The notes under the pieces: generated by a model | Seen by the model: the letters and a program-made list of their open reading frames with translations, nothing else | Told to the model about the DNA's origin: nothing | Databases searched by the model: none | Made by a program: the position numbers and the translations under genes | NCBI GenBank assembly: GCA_007376395.1 | Contig: VMGE01000004.1 | Location: 6,431 to 70,430 of the forward strand | Direction: 5' to 3' | Origin: Microgenomates group bacterium Gr01-1014_5 | Lineage (GTDB): Bacteria > Patescibacteriota > Microgenomatia > UBA8517 > UBA10165 | Length of the DNA: 64,000 nt | In this document: positions 219-11,720 of the stretch, one piece after another | Numbering within the stretch: position 1 is the first letter of the stretch | How the letters are laid out: each line of letters starts with the position of its first letter

Positions 219-1163
219 ATGTTGAAAAAATTCCTTTTTGTGAGCCTTATCGTATCAATTGTTGCTGGCGGGCAATTGACAGACGCTGTCAAAGCAGGGA
301 AGATTCCCACAAAGTTCGAGTACTCCGCTTGTGACACTCCGATTTATTACAGCGTTGGCGAAGTAGACGAGAAATTCGGGGTTAAAAAGGAAAATTTTTT
401 ATCTTCTGTGAACCGCGCGGCGCAAATTTGGAACAAAGAAGCAGGAAGAGACATTTTCCGTTATACAATGAACGAGAACTTAGCCTCAAAAGGTGAGACC
501 CTGCAGATTCATTTTAAGTACGATAAACGTCAGGCATTAACGACACAAATAGGTCAAATTACAGGGAAAGTTTATAAAGACGAAAGTTCGTTAAGGGCGG
601 CGATTACAGACTATGAAGGCAAAGTTGCGGATTTTAACTCGCGCATGGAAGCTTTTAACGCCGAAGTGCAGAAATGGAATGAAAAAGGCGGCGTTTCGCC
701 AGAGGAATACGAACGGTTGCGAGGCCAAGAGCGCCAATTACAGGAGGAGGCAACTTCTCTTGCCAATCTTGCCAAGGAGTTAAGCCTATCGTCTGAGAAA
801 TACAGCTCGCAAGTGGGAAAGCTAAACTCAACAATTGAGGCTTTTAATTCGGAACTTGCGCGCCGGCCTGAAGAAGGACTGTTTAATCCTAACAATAATA
901 CAATTGAAATTTATTTTTTCGCCAACCAAACAGAGCTTTTACACACCCTGGCTCATGAACTCGGACACGCGCGGGGACTAGAACATATAAATAACGAGAG
1001 TGAGATTATGTTCCCATACACAACTGATGTTTTAATGCCGGGAGAAGAAGACAGGCTTCAATTGAATGAAATCTGCCGCGAGAGAGATATTATTGACGAG
1101 ACATTGCAGACGGGAAGGGCTTTTATTGAAAAATACAAACTACTTCTAATTCAAAATTTTTGA
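219..1163 (+). CDS. secreted zinc metalloprotease, metzincin/matrixin-like
   Basis: N-terminal hydrophobic signal-like segment. Extended zinc-binding motif HELGHARGLEH (HExxHxxGxxH) near the C-terminus. Long coiled-coil-like insert. Confidence 0.55.
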   Translation: MLKKFLFVSLIVSIVAGGQLTDAVKAGKIPTKFEYSACDTPIYYSVGEVDEKFGVKKENFLSSVNRAAQIWNKEAGRDIFRYTMNENLASKGETLQIHFKYDKRQALTTQIGQITGKVYKDESSLRAAITDYEGKVADFNSRMEAFNAEVQKWNEKGGVSPEEYERLRGQERQLQEEATSLANLAKELSLSSEKYSSQVGKLNSTIEAFNSELARRPEEGLFNPNNNTIEIYFFANQTELLHTLAHELGHARGLEHINNESEIMFPYTTDVLMPGEEDRLQLNEICRERDIIDETLQTGRAFIEKYKLLLIQNF

Positions 1164-1910: not shown

Positions 1911-4118
1911 GTGAACCAAGTAAAAAATAACCAACCTCAAAACTCACTCGCTTTTTTGTTTGTTAAAATCCCTGCTAAAAACGAGGCCAAAGCTTCAGAG
2001 ATGGAGGAGTTTTTGAAGGCTTTGCATCGCGTCCTTCCGAACGGATCTACCATCTCTTTGGAAATGATGTCTCGGGATCAATTTTTACGTTTTTATATTG
2101 TCATTGAAAGAATTTACAAATCAGCTTTCGAATCTCAGTTGTATTCCCAATATCACGATGCGGAAGTCGAAGAAGCGGTAGAATATGTGCCCCAATTCGG
2201 AGTAAATACTGCTTTTGCAGAGGTTACTTTCCGCCACCATAGCATGCGGCCAATTGCGACACATAAAGAAAATCAGGAAGATTTCTTGAAAAGTTTTACT
2301 GCCTTTTTGTCTAAAACAGATCCTGGTGAAGAAATTTACATGCAGCTTGTAGTTAATAGAGTAGGATCGAAGCCCTGGAACCGGGGTTTATCTGGCATCG
2401 CTTCTCTGTTTAGTGGTAAACAATACACAAAAGAAGGAGAGGCAACAGCATCAACCTTAAAAATATCCCAAGATTTGTTTCGGGGAAGATTACTACTGGC
2501 TTATACGGCACAGGATAAAACAGTTGCAAAACAAAAGTTAAATCTTTTAATTAACTTATACAAACACACAGATTCAGGTAACAAACTAAGGAAGAAATGG
2601 TTTAATCTTTTCAGAGACTTATCGCTCGATTTCAAAACCCGTAAAGTTTCAGGGGGAGATTTTTGGAGTCCTGCCGAAATTGCAACAATCTATCACTTCG
2701 TTCCATATAAAGGAACCGTAGTTTCAAACGTTGTGAGCACAACTTCCCGTCGTTCTCCTGCGCCTGATTTTCTCCCCCGCGAAGGTTCGACAGCAGAGAG
2801 TAAAATTTCCTTGTTTGGAGTTACAAACTACAGGAACGACAACAAAAAATTTGGAATTTTGCGCGCAGATCGGTCAAAACACCTTTATGTTGTCGGTAAA
2901 ACAGGTTCAGGAAAAACCAAGCTTTTAGAGTTGTTAGTTATTGCTGATATTTTACAGGGGCACGGTTGTTGTTTTTTGGATCCGCATGGAGATTCGGCAG
3001 ACGAAATCTTAAAATATGTTCCAGAAGCGCGTATTAAAGATGTGGTTTATATTAACCCGACAGACCGTGATTTCCCGGTGGGATTCAATCCTCTTGAGCC
3101 GACTCAAGATTATGAGGAACGTCACAGACTTGCGTATTTCTTCGTCTCAATTTTCAAGAAAGAGTTCACGGCAACTTGGAACCCTAGAATGGAACATTTA
3201 ATCCGTTTTATTGTTTTGGCACTTCTTGAGACTCCAGACTCTAATATCTTAGGCATTGAGCGGATGTTGTCAGACACTGGATTTCGGCAAAGGGTTATCC
3301 GCCAAATCCAAGACCCTGTAGTGAAAAGCTTTTGGGCAAATGAATATGGAACTTGGGCAGAACGTTACGCTAACGACGCGGTTGTACCCATCTTAAACAA
3401 AGTAGGACAATTTATTTCCAACCCTGTAATGCGCAATATGGTAGGGCAAACCAGAAACGCTCTCGATTTTGAAGCTTTTATGAATGATGGCAAAATAGTG
3501 GTTATTAATATGTCTAAAGGAAGGCTGGGCGAAGAAAACATTGGGCTTTTGGGCTCCATGTTTGTTACCCGGATACAACAAGCAGCCCTCTCCCGTTCAA
3601 AAATACGGGAAGAAGACCGCCGGCCATTTTATTTTTATGTTGACGAGTTTCAGAACTTTGCTAACGATGCTTTGGCGACCATCCTTTCTGAGGCACGAAA
3701 ATACCAGCTCTGCATGACTATCGCTCACCAATATATTGCCCAGCTTCCCCAAGCAGTTAAAGACGCAACGTTTGGAAATGTAGGATCGCTTATTTCGTTT
3801 GGAGTTGGCGGGGACGACGCTAGTTATTTAACCAAAGAGCTGTTGCCGACTTTTTCACCCGAGGATTTAATCAATCTGGACAACCGCGATATGTATTTAA
3901 AAATTTTAGTAAACGGAAAAGTGACTCCGCCATTCTCTGCCCGCACCATTGACATGCCCAAACCCGAGGTTGATAACACCCGTGAGATTTTAAGTTATTC
4001 GAGAATGACTTACGGAAAAAATAGAATAGAGGTAGAGAGGGAAATAGAAAAATGGACTGCGGTTTCAGAATCAGTAACTGCCTCAGGCGAGGATTCTTTC
4101 CCGGAACCGATTCTTTAG
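1911..4118 (+). CDS. TraG/TraD/VirD4-family (type IV coupling protein-like) P-loop ATPase with a soluble N-terminal domain
   Basis: Walker A VVGKTGSGKT, followed by FLDPHGD (the TraG-family DPKGE-like motif). Walker B-like FYFYVDEFQNF. About 300-aa N-terminal region without TM helices. Confidence 0.5.
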   Translation: MNQVKNNQPQNSLAFLFVKIPAKNEAKASEMEEFLKALHRVLPNGSTISLEMMSRDQFLRFYIVIERIYKSAFESQLYSQYHDAEVEEAVEYVPQFGVNTAFAEVTFRHHSMRPIATHKENQEDFLKSFTAFLSKTDPGEEIYMQLVVNRVGSKPWNRGLSGIASLFSGKQYTKEGEATASTLKISQDLFRGRLLLAYTAQDKTVAKQKLNLLINLYKHTDSGNKLRKKWFNLFRDLSLDFKTRKVSGGDFWSPAEIATIYHFVPYKGTVVSNVVSTTSRRSPAPDFLPREGSTAESKISLFGVTNYRNDNKKFGILRADRSKHLYVVGKTGSGKTKLLELLVIADILQGHGCCFLDPHGDSADEILKYVPEARIKDVVYINPTDRDFPVGFNPLEPTQDYEERHRLAYFFVSIFKKEFTATWNPRMEHLIRFIVLALLETPDSNILGIERMLSDTGFRQRVIRQIQDPVVKSFWANEYGTWAERYANDAVVPILNKVGQFISNPVMRNMVGQTRNALDFEAFMNDGKIVVINMSKGRLGEENIGLLGSMFVTRIQQAALSRSKIREEDRRPFYFYVDEFQNFANDALATILSEARKYQLCMTIAHQYIAQLPQAVKDATFGNVGSLISFGVGGDDASYLTKELLPTFSPEDLINLDNRDMYLKILVNGKVTPPFSARTIDMPKPEVDNTREILSYSRMTYGKNRIEVEREIEKWTAVSESVTASGEDSFPEPIL

Positions 4119-4122
4119 AAAA

Positions 4123-5046
4123 TTAATACTTGAGAGGTCCCCAGCCAAAGTTTCTGGAATTTATCTCAGCCTGTAGGAGAGGAACAATTCTTTCGTATTC
4201 TTCGCGGGTCAGCTGCCGATTTAATATGCAGTATTGCATATTTTTAAGACCTGTGCAGCCAAAACAGTATTTGCAGTTTCCGCAATCAATAACATAAGAA
4301 GAGTCTTGACAATGACCTGACCAGATAACATAGTCGCAGTTAAATAGAGAAGTCGAATCCGACACCTCATAACTCAGTTGGCACTCGCCAGAACTATCAA
4401 TGTCGAAACAAGTTTTATTATCGTGAGCGTCATAAAGATATCCCGAGTTTTCGTTCTTGCTGGCGTCAAAACAAAGATAACAATTCTTGTTGTAGTAAAT
4501 ATAATTTCCAAAACTTGAATTAATGTTACCCTGCTCATTTGTTTGTGTCCAAGGGAAGCGATGGCCTAAAGTCCCAACTTCTTTTAGAACATCTTCTGGT
4601 TTCCAGGCAAGGTATTTTGGTAATAGTTGTTTGTATTCAGCCTCAGATAATTGACGGTTAAAAATACAAAACGATTTATTTTTTAGATTTATACAACCAA
4701 AGCAGTCGTGGCAGTTGCTGGACCATGTACAGAAATACGAATCGCGCATATTTTCACAATGATTAAGGTAATTACAGTTGTAGCACTTATAAGCGTCTGT
4801 GCACTCATAGCACAGTTCAGATTCCAAGCAATAGTCGCAATCCGCACTTTTTACCGTTAGGTAGCAATTATAAAGAAACAAGGAATCGTTAGACTTTGAT
4901 GTGTCAAATGTCCAATAAACGTTCTTGCAGAAATAAGTGCTGTTTGCCCATTCAACATTTTCTGTATTCATAAGGAGTGTGGGTCTTCTTGGGCGTAGAT
5001 TATTTAATCGTACAAGCTCTTGGAAAAATAAATCTGCTGTCAGCAT
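4123..5046 (-). CDS. cysteine-rich protein with two internal repeats (putative multi-zinc-binding)
   Basis: More than 30 Cys arranged as CxxC/CxxCxxC clusters. Two roughly 110-aa repeats each ending in C..CFGC..LKN...CI.NRQL..EEY. Confidence 0.5.
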   Translation of the reverse strand: MLTADLFFQELVRLNNLRPRRPTLLMNTENVEWANSTYFCKNVYWTFDTSKSNDSLFLYNCYLTVKSADCDYCLESELCYECTDAYKCYNCNYLNHCENMRDSYFCTWSSNCHDCFGCINLKNKSFCIFNRQLSEAEYKQLLPKYLAWKPEDVLKEVGTLGHRFPWTQTNEQGNINSSFGNYIYYNKNCYLCFDASKNENSGYLYDAHDNKTCFDIDSSGECQLSYEVSDSTSLFNCDYVIWSGHCQDSSYVIDCGNCKYCFGCTGLKNMQYCILNRQLTREEYERIVPLLQAEINSRNFGWGPLKY

Positions 5047-5047
5047 A

Positions 5048-5368
5048 TTATTGTGGAGTATTTGTATCAGGTAATGGTTCGTTGACCATTAAATCGCCTT
5101 CAACATTCCATTTGTCATAATCCTCGCGGCATAATATTGGACTAGTGGCAGTTTGCGGATCATAAGAAGTAACAATATCTTTCCCGCATTTAGAACACTT
5201 AGCTCGGTAAAGTTTTCGTCCTCCACGAAGCTCCAAACGTCTCGCTTGGCGGCATTCAGGGCATTGAGAGGGAGTTGGTAAGTTCTTTTCGCGTAGAAAC
5301 TGTTGTTCTTGGTCAATGACCAAAAACTGTTTTGTACACTTTGCGCAAGTCTGTGTTATAGCGGCCAT
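5048..5368 (-). CDS. zinc-ribbon protein
   Basis: Three CxxC pairs (CAKC, CPEC, CSKC). 1-nt gap to the downstream Cys-rich gene on the same strand, so a likely operon. Confidence 0.45.
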   Translation of the reverse strand: MAAITQTCAKCTKQFLVIDQEQQFLREKNLPTPSQCPECRQARRLELRGGRKLYRAKCSKCGKDIVTSYDPQTATSPILCREDYDKWNVEGDLMVNEPLPDTNTPQ

Positions 5369-6013
5369 TTTATGATGTGATTACAGAATAATGTATGGAT
5401 TTGCGAATGTAAAGTAATTTCGACCTTGACAGGGGCTGCTGCACTCATGTTAAAGTTAATTTTAGAATGACTCCGGGCGGTAAAGAAGCAATTCTTCCCA
5501 AAACCATCCTTTCTCTTGCTCCCGATATATACACCCCTGACCACGATACACCACAGGTGAGAATAGCTTGGGCTGGCGGCAGTTTTCTTATTGCTGTTAG
5601 ACACAGTTGCCCAGAGTATTGTGAGCCAAGCAGTCCCAAGTGTAGCGGAGTGGTAGTTGTTCCTGTAGCGTCAAGGGATATCGGTGATAAAAAGCGTTTT
5701 TGCGATAATTGCCAACAAGAGGTGCTTGTTAAAGGTGTCGGAGGGTTACGGATTGAAGCTGCTTCTATTCTTCAAGCCATGCAGAAAAACAGACTATAGA
5801 GAGTAATTTTGCATTCTTCTTGCCGGTTTGCTAAAATACTTACGTTTACACACATTCGGCCTGTAATGGTTCCTGCAGAGCGATCTGTTAATCCCCAGGA
5901 CGAATGGAGGCAAAAAGGAACCTTTTAAGTAATAAGTAACAAGCGAAAAGTAAGAAGTTAAATCGCTTTAGAGAATTCTTGTTACTTGTTGCTTATCACT
6001 TTTTACTATCATT

Positions 6014-6865: not shown

Positions 6866-7318
6866 ATGAAAATAAGTATCACTCAAATTAAAAAATTACG
6901 CTCCGAAACCGGTGCCGGAATTAATGATATTAAAAGTGCCCTTGAAGAGGCTAAAGGGGATGAGACAAAAGCAAAAGAGCAATTGCGGAAAAAAGGCTTT
7001 GAAAAAGCTGATAAAAAGGCTTCCCGCGAAATAAAAGCAGGCAGAGTTTTTTCATACGTTCATCACTCGGGAACAGTAGGGGCAATGATTACCTTGGGGT
7101 GCGAGACAGATTTTGTGGCTAAAACCGATGAGTTTCAACTGTTGGGACGCGAGTTGGCAATGCAGGCGGCCTCAATGAAGCCGGAAAACAAAGAAGAATT
7201 CTTAAAACAAGACTATATCCGTGATCCGCAAAAAACAATCGAGACTTTAATTAAGGAAGTTATAGCCAAAACCGGCGAAAACTGCCAGCTTCTTGACTTC
7301 AAACGCTTCGAGGTTTAA
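6866..7318 (+). CDS. tsf: elongation factor Ts (short form)
   Basis: N-terminal UBA-like ITQIKKLRSETGAGINDIKSALEEAKGD. Follows rpsB. Confidence 0.9.
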   Translation: MKISITQIKKLRSETGAGINDIKSALEEAKGDETKAKEQLRKKGFEKADKKASREIKAGRVFSYVHHSGTVGAMITLGCETDFVAKTDEFQLLGRELAMQAASMKPENKEEFLKQDYIRDPQKTIETLIKEVIAKTGENCQLLDFKRFEV

Positions 7319-8242: not shown

Positions 8243-9310
8243 ATGACTCCTTTTATTTTTCTAATAGTTTTGTCTATTTTAATATTTGTCCATGAACTTG
8301 GGCATTTTATTGCAGCGCGCCGCTCTGGAGTTAAAGTCGAAGAGTTTGGTTTGGGTTTTCCGCCCCGTATTTGGTCGCGAAGAAGAGGCGACACGGTTTA
8401 TTCGATTAACCTTCTCCCTATCGGCGGATTTGTCAGGCTTTACGGCGAAGAACATTCGGTAAATGTCGACAAGACCCAAGCTTATTATCACAAAGGGAGA
8501 TTGGCAAGGACAGCAATTGTTGTTTCAGGAGTATTGATGAATTTTCTCCTTGCAGTGTTTGCTTTTGCGGCAATTACCTGGTTTGTCGGCGTTCCCCGCG
8601 ATTTAGGGCATGTTAAGGTGCTAAGCGTTTCCGAAAACTCTCCAGCTTCTCAAGCCGGACTTTTGACAGACGACGTGGTTGTGGCGGTTGCAGGACAAAA
8701 TGTAGTCCAGACAAAAGAGTTTATCGAGACTGTAAATAACAGACGGGGTAAAGAAACAGAGCTCGTGGTTCGCCGCGGCTCGGAAGAAGTCAAACTTAAG
8801 GTAACCCCGAGGGAAAATCCTCCGCAAGGGCAAGGGGCATTGGGGGTTGGCATAACTTCGAGCGAAATTTACAATCCGCCTTTAGCTGAAAAACCCTTTG
8901 TTTCACTTTTTGAGGGCTTTAAACAAGCAACCTTTTGGGTGAAAGCTACGGTTTTGGGAATAACAGATTCGTTAGTGAAAGTCTTTGGCGGGAAAGCGCC
9001 TGAAGGCCTTGCTGGGCCAATTGGAATTTACCAAATCACAGAAATTGCCGCCGGGCAGGGGATTTTGGCTTTACTTTCTTTTATTGCCATACTTTCAGTC
9101 AACCTTGCGGTGTTAAATATTTTGCCGATTCCGGCACTTGACGGAGGAAGGTTGTTGTTTATCGGGGTAGAAGCGCTTTTCGGCAGACGAGTTTTGCCCA
9201 CCTTTGAAAAATACGCCCACAGAGTGGGGATGATAATTCTTTTGGCTTTAATTTTCTTAATCACCATAGGGGATATCAAGCGCCTCTTCTCCGGCGGATT
9301 TAATTTTTAG
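8243..9310 (+). CDS. rseP: RIP metalloprotease RseP (site-2 protease, M50)
   Basis: HELGHFIAAR in the first TM helix. PDZ region. C-terminal LDGG motif. Confidence 0.9.
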   Translation: MTPFIFLIVLSILIFVHELGHFIAARRSGVKVEEFGLGFPPRIWSRRRGDTVYSINLLPIGGFVRLYGEEHSVNVDKTQAYYHKGRLARTAIVVSGVLMNFLLAVFAFAAITWFVGVPRDLGHVKVLSVSENSPASQAGLLTDDVVVAVAGQNVVQTKEFIETVNNRRGKETELVVRRGSEEVKLKVTPRENPPQGQGALGVGITSSEIYNPPLAEKPFVSLFEGFKQATFWVKATVLGITDSLVKVFGGKAPEGLAGPIGIYQITEIAAGQGILALLSFIAILSVNLAVLNILPIPALDGGRLLFIGVEALFGRRVLPTFEKYAHRVGMIILLALIFLITIGDIKRLFSGGFNF

Positions 9311-9699: not shown

Positions 9700-9925
9700 T
9701 TGACTTCTGAGAGGGTGAGTATTATATTTATTTTAACGCAATGAAGGAGTTCCCAGCTTTTTCAAACCCTGAGTGAAATCGAAGGGGGAGCGGGCAAGGA
9801 TTAAGTAACTTGCACGGGTAAGCCCGAAATAGCAGTAATAAGTCACGACCAGGTTTATGGTTGTGTAAACAAAGGTGGTACCACGGCATAGCCGTCCTTT
9901 ACTAAAGGATGGCTATTTTTGTTTT
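9700..9925 (+). promoter_or_regulatory. putative T-box leader (promoter, Stem I region, canonical antiterminator/terminator)
   Basis: -35 TTGACT 9700-9705, -10 TATATT 9723-9728. AAAGGTGGTACCACGG 9871-9886 matches the T-box consensus with the 7-nt UGGUACC bulge. A1 helix AAAGG/CCTTT and A2 helix ACGG/CCGT. The competing terminator AGCCGTCCTTT..AAAGGATGGCT is followed by ATTTTTGTTTT. Confidence 0.5.
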
Positions 9926-9928
9926 AAG

Positions 9929-10189
9929 ATGATAAAACCAACAATTAAATACGAAGATTTTGAGAAGGTCGATATGCGAGCTGGCAGGGTCACACGTGTC
10001 GAGGACTTTCCTGAAGCCCACAAGCCTGCATATAAACTTTGGATTGACTTCGGGCCAGAGATTAGGACAAAGCAGTCTAGTGCCCAGGTGGTTAAGCATC
10101 AAACAAAAGAAGATTTATTGGGAAAACTTGTGGTTTGTGTAGTCAATTTTGAACCAAAACAAATTGGCCGTTTACTTCTGAGGTATTAA
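9929..10189 (+). pseudogene. CsaA/Trbp111-like tRNA-binding domain protein, apparently frameshifted near the 3' end
   Basis: [28 protein letters not shown] matches the OB-fold tRNA-binding domain. The ORF stops at 10189, but the +2 frame continues as [31 protein letters not shown] to 10279, a typical C-terminus. Confidence 0.55.
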
Positions 10190-10280
10190 CCTTAGGGGTT
10201 GCAGATGAAACCCAAGATGCAAGCAACTGGATAATCTTGCGACCTTTTAAAGAGGCGCCGTTAGGAGGTATGATTAAGTA

Positions 10281-11720
10281 ATGGCGGACAAAATAACCAA
10301 AAAGTCTGAAAATATTTCTTCTTGGTATAACGATGTAGTTTTGGCGGCAAAGCTTGCCGAACACGGGCCAGCGCGGGGAACGATTATTATCCGCCCCTAT
10401 GGATATGCGATTTGGGAAATAATCCAGCGTTATCTGGATGCTAAGATCAAAAGCTTCGGGGTTGATAATGCTTATTTCCCTTTATTTATTCCAAATTCTC
10501 TTTTACAAAAAGAAAAATCACACGTCGAGGGATTTTCTCCAGAACTTGCAGTTGTAACTCATGGCGGAGGAGAAGAACTAGCCGAACCTCTTGTTGTGCG
10601 TCCGACATCCGAAACTATTATGTACGATGCTTATTCTCACTGGATTTCGTCTTACCGAGATTTACCTTTAAAAATTAATCAATGGAATAATGTTGTCAGA
10701 TGGGAAAAAAGGCCGTACCTTTTCCTGCGCGGGACAGAATTTTTGTGGCAAGAAGGGCACACTGCGCATGCAACTCACGAAGACGCAATTGATATGACTA
10801 AAAAAGCTTTGGATGCTTATGTTGATACTTACCAAAACCAAATGGCTTTATTTGGCTATGCTGGCCGCAAGTCTGAAAGCGAAAAGTTTGCCGGTGCCGC
10901 AGTTACTTACACTTATGAAACTTTAATGCCTGATGGGAAAATTGTGCAAAGTTGTACATCCCACGATTTAGGGCAAAATTTTGCGAAAGCTTTTGATATT
11001 AAATTCCAGGACCAAAATTCTGAAAATCAGTATGTCTGGCAGACTTCTTGGGGGCTTTCAACGCGTTCAATTGGAGTATTAATTTTGGCGCACGGTGACG
11101 ACAATGGCCTTGTCTTGCCTCCTGCGGTTGCACCGTACCAGGTAGTGATTGTTCCTATTCATGGTAAAGACGGCGATCACGAAAAAATTGGGCAATTATC
11201 GCAACGTGTCTTTGAAGTTTTAGAGACTTCCAGTCTCCGGGTTAAAGTGGATAGTACAGAAAATTCTACTGGTTGGAAGTTTAATGAAGCAGATTTGCAA
11301 GGAATACCCTTGCGAATTGAAATAGGGAAGACAGAGATAGAGACAGAGAAAGTGAAGGTTGTGGTCAGATGGCCTGAGACCCGAGATGTGTTCAACTTTG
11401 GAATCAGCGAGTTGGCGCAAGAAGTTGAGAAGCTTTTGGACACAATGCAAAAAGATCTTTTACGGGCTCACAAAGACTGGACCCTTGCTAATACCAGGGA
11501 GGTAGGAACATACGATGAGTTCAAAGAGATTATGTCAACTGTCCGCGGATTTATTAAGGCTTACTGGTGCGAAGAAGCCGAGTGTGAAGCAAAGATTAAA
11601 GAAGAAACAAAGGCGACTGTACGCGTTTTACCTTTTGATGAGGAGGTTGAGACAGAAGGTAAGTGTGTCCAATGCGGCAATAAAGCTTTTCGCCGTTGGC
11701 TCTTCGGCCAGAGTTATTAA
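10281..11720 (+). CDS. proS: prolyl-tRNA synthetase, archaeal/eukaryotic type
   Basis: Class II motifs. C-terminal zinc-binding CxxC...CVQCG and conserved terminal Y (..RRWLFGQSY). Confidence 0.9.
   Translation: MADKITKKSENISSWYNDVVLAAKLAEHGPARGTIIIRPYGYAIWEIIQRYLDAKIKSFGVDNAYFPLFIPNSLLQKEKSHVEGFSPELAVVTHGGGEELAEPLVVRPTSETIMYDAYSHWISSYRDLPLKINQWNNVVRWEKRPYLFLRGTEFLWQEGHTAHATHEDAIDMTKKALDAYVDTYQNQMALFGYAGRKSESEKFAGAAVTYTYETLMPDGKIVQSCTSHDLGQNFAKAFDIKFQDQNSENQYVWQTSWGLSTRSIGVLILAHGDDNGLVLPPAVAPYQVVIVPIHGKDGDHEKIGQLSQRVFEVLETSSLRVKVDSTENSTGWKFNEADLQGIPLRIEIGKTEIETEKVKVVVRWPETRDVFNFGISELAQEVEKLLDTMQKDLLRAHKDWTLANTREVGTYDEFKEIMSTVRGFIKAYWCEEAECEAKIKEETKATVRVLPFDEEVETEGKCVQCGNKAFRRWLFGQSY

Follow-up and report, generated by a model that had tools for sequence, protein, structure and literature searches.

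A 64,000-nt stretch of the genome of Microgenomates group bacterium Gr01-1014_5 (contig VMGE01000004.1; "the window" is this whole stretch) carries a small operon for two cysteine-rich proteins, convergent with a gene for an ATPase that resembles the coupling proteins of type IV secretion systems (T4SS). The question raised by this locus is whether the three genes belong together and, if they do, what an orphan coupling-protein-like ATPase might do with such partners. The gene layout described in an earlier reading of this DNA, made from its letters without database searches (the sequence-only reading), was recovered with agreeing coordinates:

5048..5368, minus strand: zinc-finger gene, an open reading frame (ORF) of 106 residues
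4123..5046, minus strand: Cys-rich repeat gene, an ORF of 307 residues, 1 nt 3' of the zinc-finger gene
1911..4118, plus strand: ATPase gene, an ORF of 735 residues, convergent with the repeat gene
4119..4122: junction of the ATPase and repeat genes, 4 nt between the convergent stop codons

The answer that we favour, at a probability of about 0.45, is that the trio forms a conserved cytoplasmic module found across the candidate phyla radiation (CPR), composed of an exapted soluble motor and an adaptor or regulator unit. So far, the module appears to be specific to CPR/Patescibacteria.

In order to follow the trio in relatives, a scan of one genome per species was made, which yielded 254 relatives; 79 loci were fetched with flanks of approximately 6 kb, and linkage was counted with the three window proteins as tblastn queries against every fetched locus. 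These loci, under Patescibacteria names or evident placeholders, span Levybacteria, Blackburnbacteria, Daviesbacteria, Saccharimonadales, Parcubacteria, Peregrinibacteria/Peribacteria and Gracilibacteria; a few other names look mislabelled. Among 33 non-redundant loci encoding the short form of the repeat protein (~307 residues), the ATPase gene was found in 31: it is convergent in all 31 and located within 700 nt in 30. In essentially all of the short-form loci, the gene directly upstream from the repeat gene is an orthologue of the zinc-finger gene, and one of the two loci lacking the ATPase gene ends 343 nt past the repeat gene. The trio recurs amid differing flanking genes (L001, on a 650-kb contig; L003; L004/L005; L006/L007). 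Linkage in 31/33 loci with differing flanks identifies the three genes as a conserved module and not a chance neighbourhood. The sequence-only reading had described a Cys-rich operon tied to an orphan ATPase as a combination that it did not recognise, and had proposed gene-neighbourhood conservation as a check. The check found the trio linked in relatives, and the combination recurs as fused or co-directional forms in distant classes.

The junction between the ATPase and repeat genes is equally tight or overlapping in relatives such as L001 (gene ends at 8921 and 8918), L004 and L006, the overlap being 4 nt. A search for a terminator-like site at 4119..4122 found none; the 4-nt convergent gap leaves no space for separate terminators, so that the 3' ends of the two transcripts must overlap. 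Some Microgenomates-type loci contain a second short repeat gene in tandem (L006 4711-5634, L018 5064-5984 and L020 2996-3910).

Long-form loci (n = 49), mainly from Peregrinibacteria, Peribacteria and Gracilibacteria, encode a protein of 550-600 residues with zinc-finger modules at both ends, present as tandem arrays of 1-7 copies in 13 kb or less. The ATPase gene was found in 10 of the 49, at the array end or beside the gene, and co-directional with it. In L009 a gene for a 561-residue fused form is followed by the ATPase gene with a 4-nt overlap, and the gene order in L040 is ATPase, zinc finger and four short repeat genes. Zinc-finger fusions account for 90 of the 150 best family representatives: the architecture is zinc finger-repeat-zinc finger in 65, zinc finger-repeat in 17, repeat-zinc finger in 8 and repeat only in the other 60. 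One representative, P0002, is a direct fusion of the zinc-finger and repeat proteins of the window type. Up to 7 paralogous genes for 550-600-residue proteins with zinc fingers on both sides of the repeats (for example in L046, L049, L055, L057 and L074) are a large investment for genomes of ~1 Mb. Loci L040 and L041 belong to one metagenome-assembled genome with two separate arrays, and the ATPase gene is present at only one of them.

The ATPase matches G01um10145_488, from Microgenomates group bacterium Gr01-1014_5, at 100% identity, and its identity across Microgenomates is ~58-60%. The TraG/VirD4 motifs attributed to it are all present: GKTGSGKT (Walker A, residues 329-336), FLDPHGD and VDEFQNF (VDEFQ at residues 577-581; Walker B at 575-580). 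The soluble N-terminus of ~300 residues, said to replace the usual transmembrane anchor, was recovered by two means. No transmembrane helix was found in a Kyte-Doolittle scan, the highest 19-residue mean being 1.64 at residues 338-356, beside the P-loop. The AlphaFold2 (AF2) model, with a predicted local distance difference test score (pLDDT) of 74.8, begins with a soluble domain of the alpha/beta type, continues with a RecA-like core into which an all-alpha domain is inserted (residues ~401-511), and has a disordered C-terminal linker. The N-terminal residues ~1-260 correspond to Pfam DUF8128, by annotation of the identical database entry and of orthologues. DUF87 is annotated in most orthologues; in the window ATPase its match is weak (E 9.6e-4) and below the cut-off.

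Profile scores placed the ATPase narrowly above the Pfam cut-offs for TrwB_AAD_bind (30.8 vs 20.5 bits), TraG-D_C and T4SS-DNA_transf, and far under the NCBIfam cut-offs for type IV coupling proteins (T4CPs): 44.6 vs 250 bits for the CD1115-family VirD4-like model and 40.7 vs 366 bits for SXT TraD. Foldseek searches with the AF2 model matched TrwK/VirB4 (E 3e-12), HerA (3e-8), Cagbeta (8.5e-8), DotL (3e-7) and TrwB (6e-7). Template modelling (TM) scores against TrwB were 0.57-0.60, normalised to TrwB; against VirB4 and HerA the global TM-score was only ~0.3, with a root-mean-square deviation of 14 A. Judged from the model, the ATPase is by fold as near to VirB4 and HerA as to VirD4. The marginal Pfam scores, the scores below the NCBIfam cut-offs and the mixed Foldseek matches therefore place it, as a soluble NTPase, in the VirB4/VirD4/HerA branch, and do not demonstrate that it is a coupling protein. 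No T4SS or relaxase genes were found in the annotated neighbourhoods (L001, L003, L004, L006, L008, L009, L040 and L074), and the window's large ORFs, covering 64 kb of genome, contain no T4SS genes, in agreement with what had been noted from the letters. The name "T4SS coupling protein" is therefore a superfamily-level label, since the ATPase has neither the membrane anchor nor the T4SS context.

The C-terminus of the ATPase is its other conserved feature:

4101..4118, plus strand: ATPase tail FPEPIL, residues 730-735 of the protein

The alignment of the ATPases ends in a nearly invariant FPEPI[IL], which comes after a variable linker of low pLDDT. The broader form F[PE]EP[IL][IV]-COOH, with acidic residues before it, is kept from Microgenomates to Peribacteria, including distant long-form loci. 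It is absent from the ATPase homologues of Bacillus phages, in whose loci neither zinc-finger nor repeat genes occur. Docking of a partner through a short, acidic-hydrophobic peptide at the end of a flexible C-terminal linker is a classic format, seen in TraD-TraM, at the C-terminus of DotL and in the tail of SSB. By analogy, we infer that the ATPase tail docks the zinc-finger/repeat unit. The tail of the zinc-finger protein, NDPII.DPLPE, holds a DPII element similar to the ATPase tail, and this resemblance suggests that the two proteins may share a docking motif.

These features bear on the most serious rival explanation: that the ATPase is a genuine T4CP for a distant Patescibacterial T4SS, the zinc-finger and repeat proteins being its adaptors or effectors delivered to the host, and the arrays an effector/adaptor repertoire. 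Coupling proteins use C-terminal tails and small Zn-binding partners (TraD-TraM, DotL-DotN). Like the known T4CPs (VirD4/TraG/TraD/TrwB, DotL and Cagbeta), the window ATPase has a P-loop nucleotide-binding domain with Walker A and B motifs and an all-alpha insert; its sequence and fold relate it to TrwB, DotL and Cagbeta, and its conserved tail and dedicated small partner recall TraD-TraM, DotL-DotN/IcmSW and Cagbeta-CagZ. Tandem expansion to 7 or more paralogues is typical of effector families, and T4CP genes are often encoded apart from virB4 (PMC12102498). However, the ATPase carries a soluble DUF8128 region of ~300 residues where T4CPs have an N-terminal transmembrane anchor, its scores are far below the NCBIfam T4CP cut-offs, its best fold E-values are to VirB4 and HerA and not to VirD4, and its partner proteins are unrelated to the known T4CP adaptors. 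The annotated loci show no relaxase gene next to the module and, over about 6-8 kb around it, no T4SS component. Moreover, zinc fingers and rigid beta-rich repeats would make poor substrates for unfolded translocation, and a Microgenomates orthologue kept in single copy at ~50% identity is unlike an arms-race effector. In Southlakia epibionticum the T4CP homologue was reported not to be essential for epibiotic growth, while the T4SS genes were (PMC12102498). Taking both sides together, we regard a T4SS role for the trio as unlikely.

The proteins with the best Foldseek E-values, VirB4 (TrwK) and HerA, including the HerA-NurA and HerA-Sir2/DUF4297 systems, resemble the window ATPase in being soluble and in combining an N-terminal domain with a RecA-like domain; in these systems, too, the motor gene adjoins that of a dedicated non-ATPase partner. 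The window ATPase differs in that its partner has no nuclease or NADase domain, and no HAS-barrel or VirB3/VirB8 context was seen for it. This comparison raises the possibility that the trio provides defence against phages or mobile genetic elements, of the HerA-plus-effector type (HerA-Sir2, HerA-DUF4297, MADS), in which the zinc-finger and repeat proteins would be sensors and the arrays a product of diversifying selection. The weak PADLOC matches of the ATPase (mad8 at E 2.8e-12; HerA at E values of at least 5e-4), the HerA defence complexes 8xav and 8zir among its Foldseek matches, the multiplicity of the partners and the presence of homologous ATPases in large Bacillus phages would fit such a role. 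None of the three proteins, however, has a nuclease, Sir2, TIR or other effector domain, and the zinc-finger and repeat proteins gave no PADLOC match at all. The near-universal, syntenic, single-copy conservation in Microgenomates, in a housekeeping context (rpsB-tsf-frr, guaA, carB), is unlike patchy defence islands, and no close relative of the repeat protein was found on a plasmid, a phage or a viral contig. We give this explanation very little credence.

The same searches, of plasmids, INPHARED phages (E<1e-3) and IMG/VR contigs, yielded no relatives of the repeat protein, and a mobile-element origin of the module was rejected on these grounds. For the ATPase, the strongest profile match outside the CPR was phrog_5156 (E 9.5e-78), whose carriers include phage G, with gp156 showing 25% identity over 68% of the protein, and SPO1-like Bacillus phages, such as CP-51 (gp91, in L090). 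The loci of phage G and of the SPO1-like phages were considered as parallels of the module and set aside, the ATPase homologues having no partner genes nearby. Phage G gp156 differs further from the window ATPase in its hydrophobic segment and in the VirB-like gene adjacent to it. In phage G (L089) the gp156 gene follows this "VirB-like" gene, an arrangement which suggests that gp155-gp156 is a phage-borne VirB4/T4CP-like pair.

The 106-residue protein contains 7 cysteines, three CxxC pairs and one lone Cys, as expected from its earlier description as a triple-CxxC zinc ribbon. Residues 5-44 matched the Pfam family zf_Tbcl (PF13451) with an E-value of 9e-8 and 32.4 bits (gathering cut-off 24), the pairs being C8/C11 and C35/C38; matches to zf_Tbcl_2 (PF23477) and to the CxxC-x17-CxxC model TIGR04272 were below the cut-offs. 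From its sequence, the protein is a treble-clef zinc-finger protein and a member of PF13451, which Pfam describes as a "probable treble clef" family of unknown function. The second finger (residues 51-85) is degenerate, with C58, C61, C80 and possibly D83 as ligands; these three Cys plus Asp distinguish it from the zf_Tbcl/zf_Tbcl_2 domains, the same domains that are found at the termini of the long-form repeat proteins. A basic helix is present (CRQARRLELRGGRK). The features conserved across 32 orthologues are the cysteines, the basic helix (CP.CRQ.RRL.LRG) and the C-terminal tail NDPII.DPLPE. No hydrophobic segment fit for a membrane helix was found in the protein.

The 307-residue protein is internally duplicated: residues 30-143 and 176-289 share 38% identity over 114 residues (pairwise E 4e-29). 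It consists of an N-terminal helix, repeat 1 (~30-132), a helical linker, repeat 2 (~176-278) and a C-terminal helix. Both repeats terminate in CFGC..LKN..[FY]CI.NRQL[ST].EEY (FGC-x8-C-I-x-N-R-Q-L-[ST]-x-E-E-Y), so that the duplication and the repeat-end motif reported from the letters are both present. The spacings between its cysteines are all multiples of 3, and rows of 9 residues place them at positions 2, 5 and 8. The isoelectric point (pI) is ~4.9, and 4.5-5.5 across orthologues; no signal peptide and no hydrophobic segment fit for a membrane helix were found.

Close homologues of the repeat protein (n = 387) share ~50% identity and are nearly all 306-310 residues long. An exhaustive profile search recovered a wider family of 3,224 representative clusters, 908 of which had E <1e-30, and the source names recovered for the homologues were all "hypothetical protein". 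Pfam returned no match to the single sequence or to 47 separate family members; NCBIfam, PADLOC and the PDB sequence profile search gave none to the 307-residue protein, and neither did the ferredoxin, radical-SAM, DnaJ-CR and rubredoxin profiles. The radical-SAM motif CxxxCxxC and the ferredoxin "CP" dipeptide are absent from the sequence itself. The AF2 model (pLDDT 70) is beta-rich, and Foldseek against PDB and BFVD gave nothing significant: only generic beta-helix matches at E>0.1 and a TM-score of about 0.1, among them the pentapeptide-repeat protein AlbG and the TBCC/RP2 beta-helices. The known beta-solenoid families (pentapeptide, hexapeptide LbH, RTX, pectate-lyase-like, bactofilin and insect antifreeze protein) likewise gave no significant profile or structural match. 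The model suggests that the 307-residue protein is probably beta-rich and solenoid-like. Confident homology to a characterised family, which would have refuted the sequence-only reading, did not emerge from the Pfam, NCBIfam, PDB-profile and Foldseek searches.

One known system with a comparable pattern is the Tenebrio antifreeze protein (PF02420), which has cysteines at multiples of 3 in a beta-rich repeat, as does the Campylobacter phage protein CPt10_1641 (L091 3887-4312; 141 residues, Cys at every third residue). The 307-residue protein weakly matches phrog_15341 (E 7e-9), to which CPt10_1641 probably belongs, and hhalign of the repeat-family profile against CPt10_1641 gave a probability of 87% (E 4e-6). 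The CPt10 depositors had annotated the protein with weak insect-antifreeze Pfam matches. The repeat family itself has no PF02420 or PDB sequence match, and it differs from the Cys-laddered beta-helices in being cytoplasmic, with no signal peptide, and in having cysteines replaceable by Ser. The similarity to CPt10_1641 may be compositional or periodic rather than homologous. CPt10 was rejected as a parallel of the module, the P-loop protein beside CPt10_1641 not being homologous to the ATPase (hhalign probability 1.6%). The Peribacter cysteine-rich proteins (PMC4736985) were rejected as relatives because they are large extracellular proteins of a different family.

The number of cysteines in the 307-residue protein is 25, and not more than 30 as the sequence-only reading had counted. 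The ladder of CxxC units which it had described is present in the 307-residue sequence; in orthologues most of the ladder cysteines are not conserved. Across 47 orthologues only C118 and C127 (2/25) are invariant; C79, C264 and C273 are kept at 91-98%, C97 at 89% and C255 at 87%, and in the remaining columns Cys is mixed with Ser, Ala or Gly. Among 142 diverse representatives the Cys-rich columns fall strictly at every third position with an occupancy of 0.3-0.9, and the sole well-conserved group is the C-x2-C-x2-C-x2-C ending repeat 1, together with the Cys of FGC in repeat 2. As obligate four-ligand sites should correlate, the co-occupancy of cysteines was tested on 329 dereplicated family members. 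Within clades the mean phi for i/i+3 pairs was 0.03 and no four-column groups were found; the strongest correlations are clade signatures. The family thus has no conserved metal-ligand tetrads, and the ladder cysteines, exchanged with Ser, Ala or Gly and uncorrelated with their CxxC partners, behave like small buried residues and not like zinc or Fe-S ligands. An obligate metal model of the CxxC ladder was therefore rejected, and the multi-site zinc or metal ladder implied earlier is not supported.

A related explanation is that the repeat protein is a metalloprotein whose cysteine ladder would bind the metals, either as a store or as a redox protein (multi-zinc, Fe-S or metallothionein-like), with the ATPase as its maturation or insertion factor. 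Cysteine makes up 5-12% of the residues in the family, spaced by a strict period of 3 residues and often in CxxC pairs; each of the two repeats of the 307-residue protein has the whole of the conserved C-x2-C-x2-C-x2-C(-x8-C) cluster, and in L074 a ZIP zinc transporter gene lies beside the ATPase gene; one metal site per repeat end is possible on this pattern. The scarcity of invariant cysteines, the small residues that replace them, the lack of i/i+3 correlation and the null results with the ferredoxin, radical-SAM, DnaJ-CR and rubredoxin profiles all argue against it, and the ZIP neighbour occurs in one locus only. We consider a metalloprotein role quite improbable.

The fold and charge of the repeat protein allow another explanation: that the repeat protein, as an acidic rod, mimics nucleic acid or is a cytoskeletal or filament subunit, similar to bactofilins or pentapeptide-repeat proteins, and that it plugs, inhibits or is remodelled by the translocase instead of serving as an adaptor for cargo. 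The acidic pI is kept across orthologues, the fold matches are of the beta-helix type, AlbG and TBCC/RP2 included, and the two beta-rich domains of ~100 residues are comparable in size to bactofilin domains. However, these fold matches are all non-significant, the repeat protein has no sequence relation to AlbG-, TBCC/RP2- or bactofilin-type families, and its charge is only moderately acidic. We judge this explanation very improbable.

In the conserved module that we favour, the motor would be soluble and probably hexameric, an NTPase from the VirB4/VirD4/HerA branch within the FtsK-HerA superfamily. Lacking a membrane anchor and a T4SS context, either lost or never possessed, it reads as an "exapted coupling protein". 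The zinc finger and the tandem Cys-rich repeats would form a single functional unit, encoded by two putatively translationally coupled genes here and by one fused polypeptide in most other lineages, and this unit would serve the motor as adaptor or regulator. Through its basic helix, the zinc finger could contact nucleic acid or an acidic cargo, and the rigid acidic rod could be a docking or spacing scaffold. The tail F[PE]EP[IL][IV] would tether the motor to the unit, resembling the tails of TraD, DotL and SSB that recruit partners. In Microgenomates each motor would have a single partner, and in Peregrinibacteria many paralogous ones.

Several observations weigh against this model. The short-form locus L031 has no ATPase gene within 6 kb, and 39 of the 49 long-form loci have none within the fetched flanks of ~6 kb, which may be because the arrays outrun the flank or because the paralogues act without the motor. 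The repeat-end C-x2-C-x2-C-x2-C, with 80-96% occupancy in the wider family, leaves a metal site or other chemistry possible. The solenoid-like shape is drawn from a model of only moderate confidence, non-significant beta-helix matches and the periodicity of the sequence. That the proteins interact physically, what the tail does, which cargo is handled and how the motor oligomerises are all parts of the model that we infer.

A recent survey provides the setting for these results: published in 2025, it counted 5,713 VirD4-like T4CP homologues across 2,918 genomes of Patescibacteria, and only 148 of these homologues were encoded near virB4 (PMC12102498). Its authors state that exaptation of T4CP homologues "cannot be ruled out", and the survey names no partner for the T4CPs of Patescibacterial T4SSs (PMC12102498). 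The window ATPase may be one of the published set of 5,713. Our findings provide the orphan coupling-protein-like ATPases of Patescibacteria with a conserved, often fused and testable genomic partner. This partner family, a zinc finger with Cys-rich repeats, comprises more than 3,000 representative clusters with no Pfam or NCBIfam model for the repeats, and merits domain definition and structure determination. A large part of bacterial diversity belongs to Patescibacteria, whose lineage-specific genes are mostly of unknown function. Of the components of the module, the superfamily of the ATPase and the Pfam family of the zinc finger were already known. The association of the three genes, their fusions, the arrays of paralogues and the conserved tail of the ATPase appear to be undescribed in the literature searched, in which no papers were found under PF13451, zf_Tbcl or DUF8128. 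We see a substantial chance that the partner family represents a new fold and that the module is a new machine. A bolder proposal would be a lineage-wide machine in which a tail-recruited exapted motor is joined to a new fold family of zinc-finger-capped, Cys-laddered, beta-rich rods, expanded to arrays of seven or more paralogues in Peregrinibacteria. Such a machine would act on nucleic acid or protein cargo, would be central to the reduced, host-dependent lifestyle and would explain most "orphan T4CP" genes; this we hold to be doubtful.

Other features of the window surround the trio:

5385..5413, minus strand: promoter-like site TTTACA-17-TATTCT, directly upstream from the zinc-finger gene (consensus scan, 9/12 matches)
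219..1163, plus strand: metzincin-like ORF with a Peptidase_M10 match (E 1.8e-7) and an N-terminal hydrophobic segment
1187..1846, minus strand: ORF of 219 residues, divergent from the ATPase gene

The site at 5385..5413 is a weak candidate promoter for the zinc-finger/repeat operon, as shuffled sequence gives about as many such sites. It lies in a spacer of 645 nt (5369-6013) between the zinc-finger gene and rpsB, unusually long for a compact genome, with a GC-richer stretch (0.47-0.51) around 5500-5700. No above-threshold Rfam family and no tRNA were found in the spacer, and an ORF of 110 residues within it (5467-5799) had no PHROG match. The secreted metzincin which the sequence-only reading had placed upstream is supported by its Peptidase_M10 match and N-terminal hydrophobic segment; its relevance to the module was not, and it was rejected as a member since it is not a conserved neighbour in the relatives' loci. 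The protein contains the motif HELGHARGLEH and, ahead of it, a long coiled-coil or LemA-like insert (~96-215), an unusual architecture. The 219-residue ORF had no match in Pfam, NCBIfam, PADLOC or PHROGs and was also rejected as a member, being absent beside the ATPase gene in other loci.

Housekeeping genes surround the trio in the window: rpsB, tsf, frr, proS, dnaX, cysS, hisS and purine genes. The ATPase gene adjoins guaA, encoding GMP synthase, in two loci that otherwise differ (L004 9274-10803 and L040 668-2194), and in the Peribacteria locus L074 the ZIP gene (9815-10702, minus strand) comes immediately after it; these neighbours may be coincidence or remnant synteny. After rpsB in the window, an ORF at 6866-7318 on the plus strand resembles elongation factor Ts and encodes only 150 residues, approximately half the usual bacterial length.

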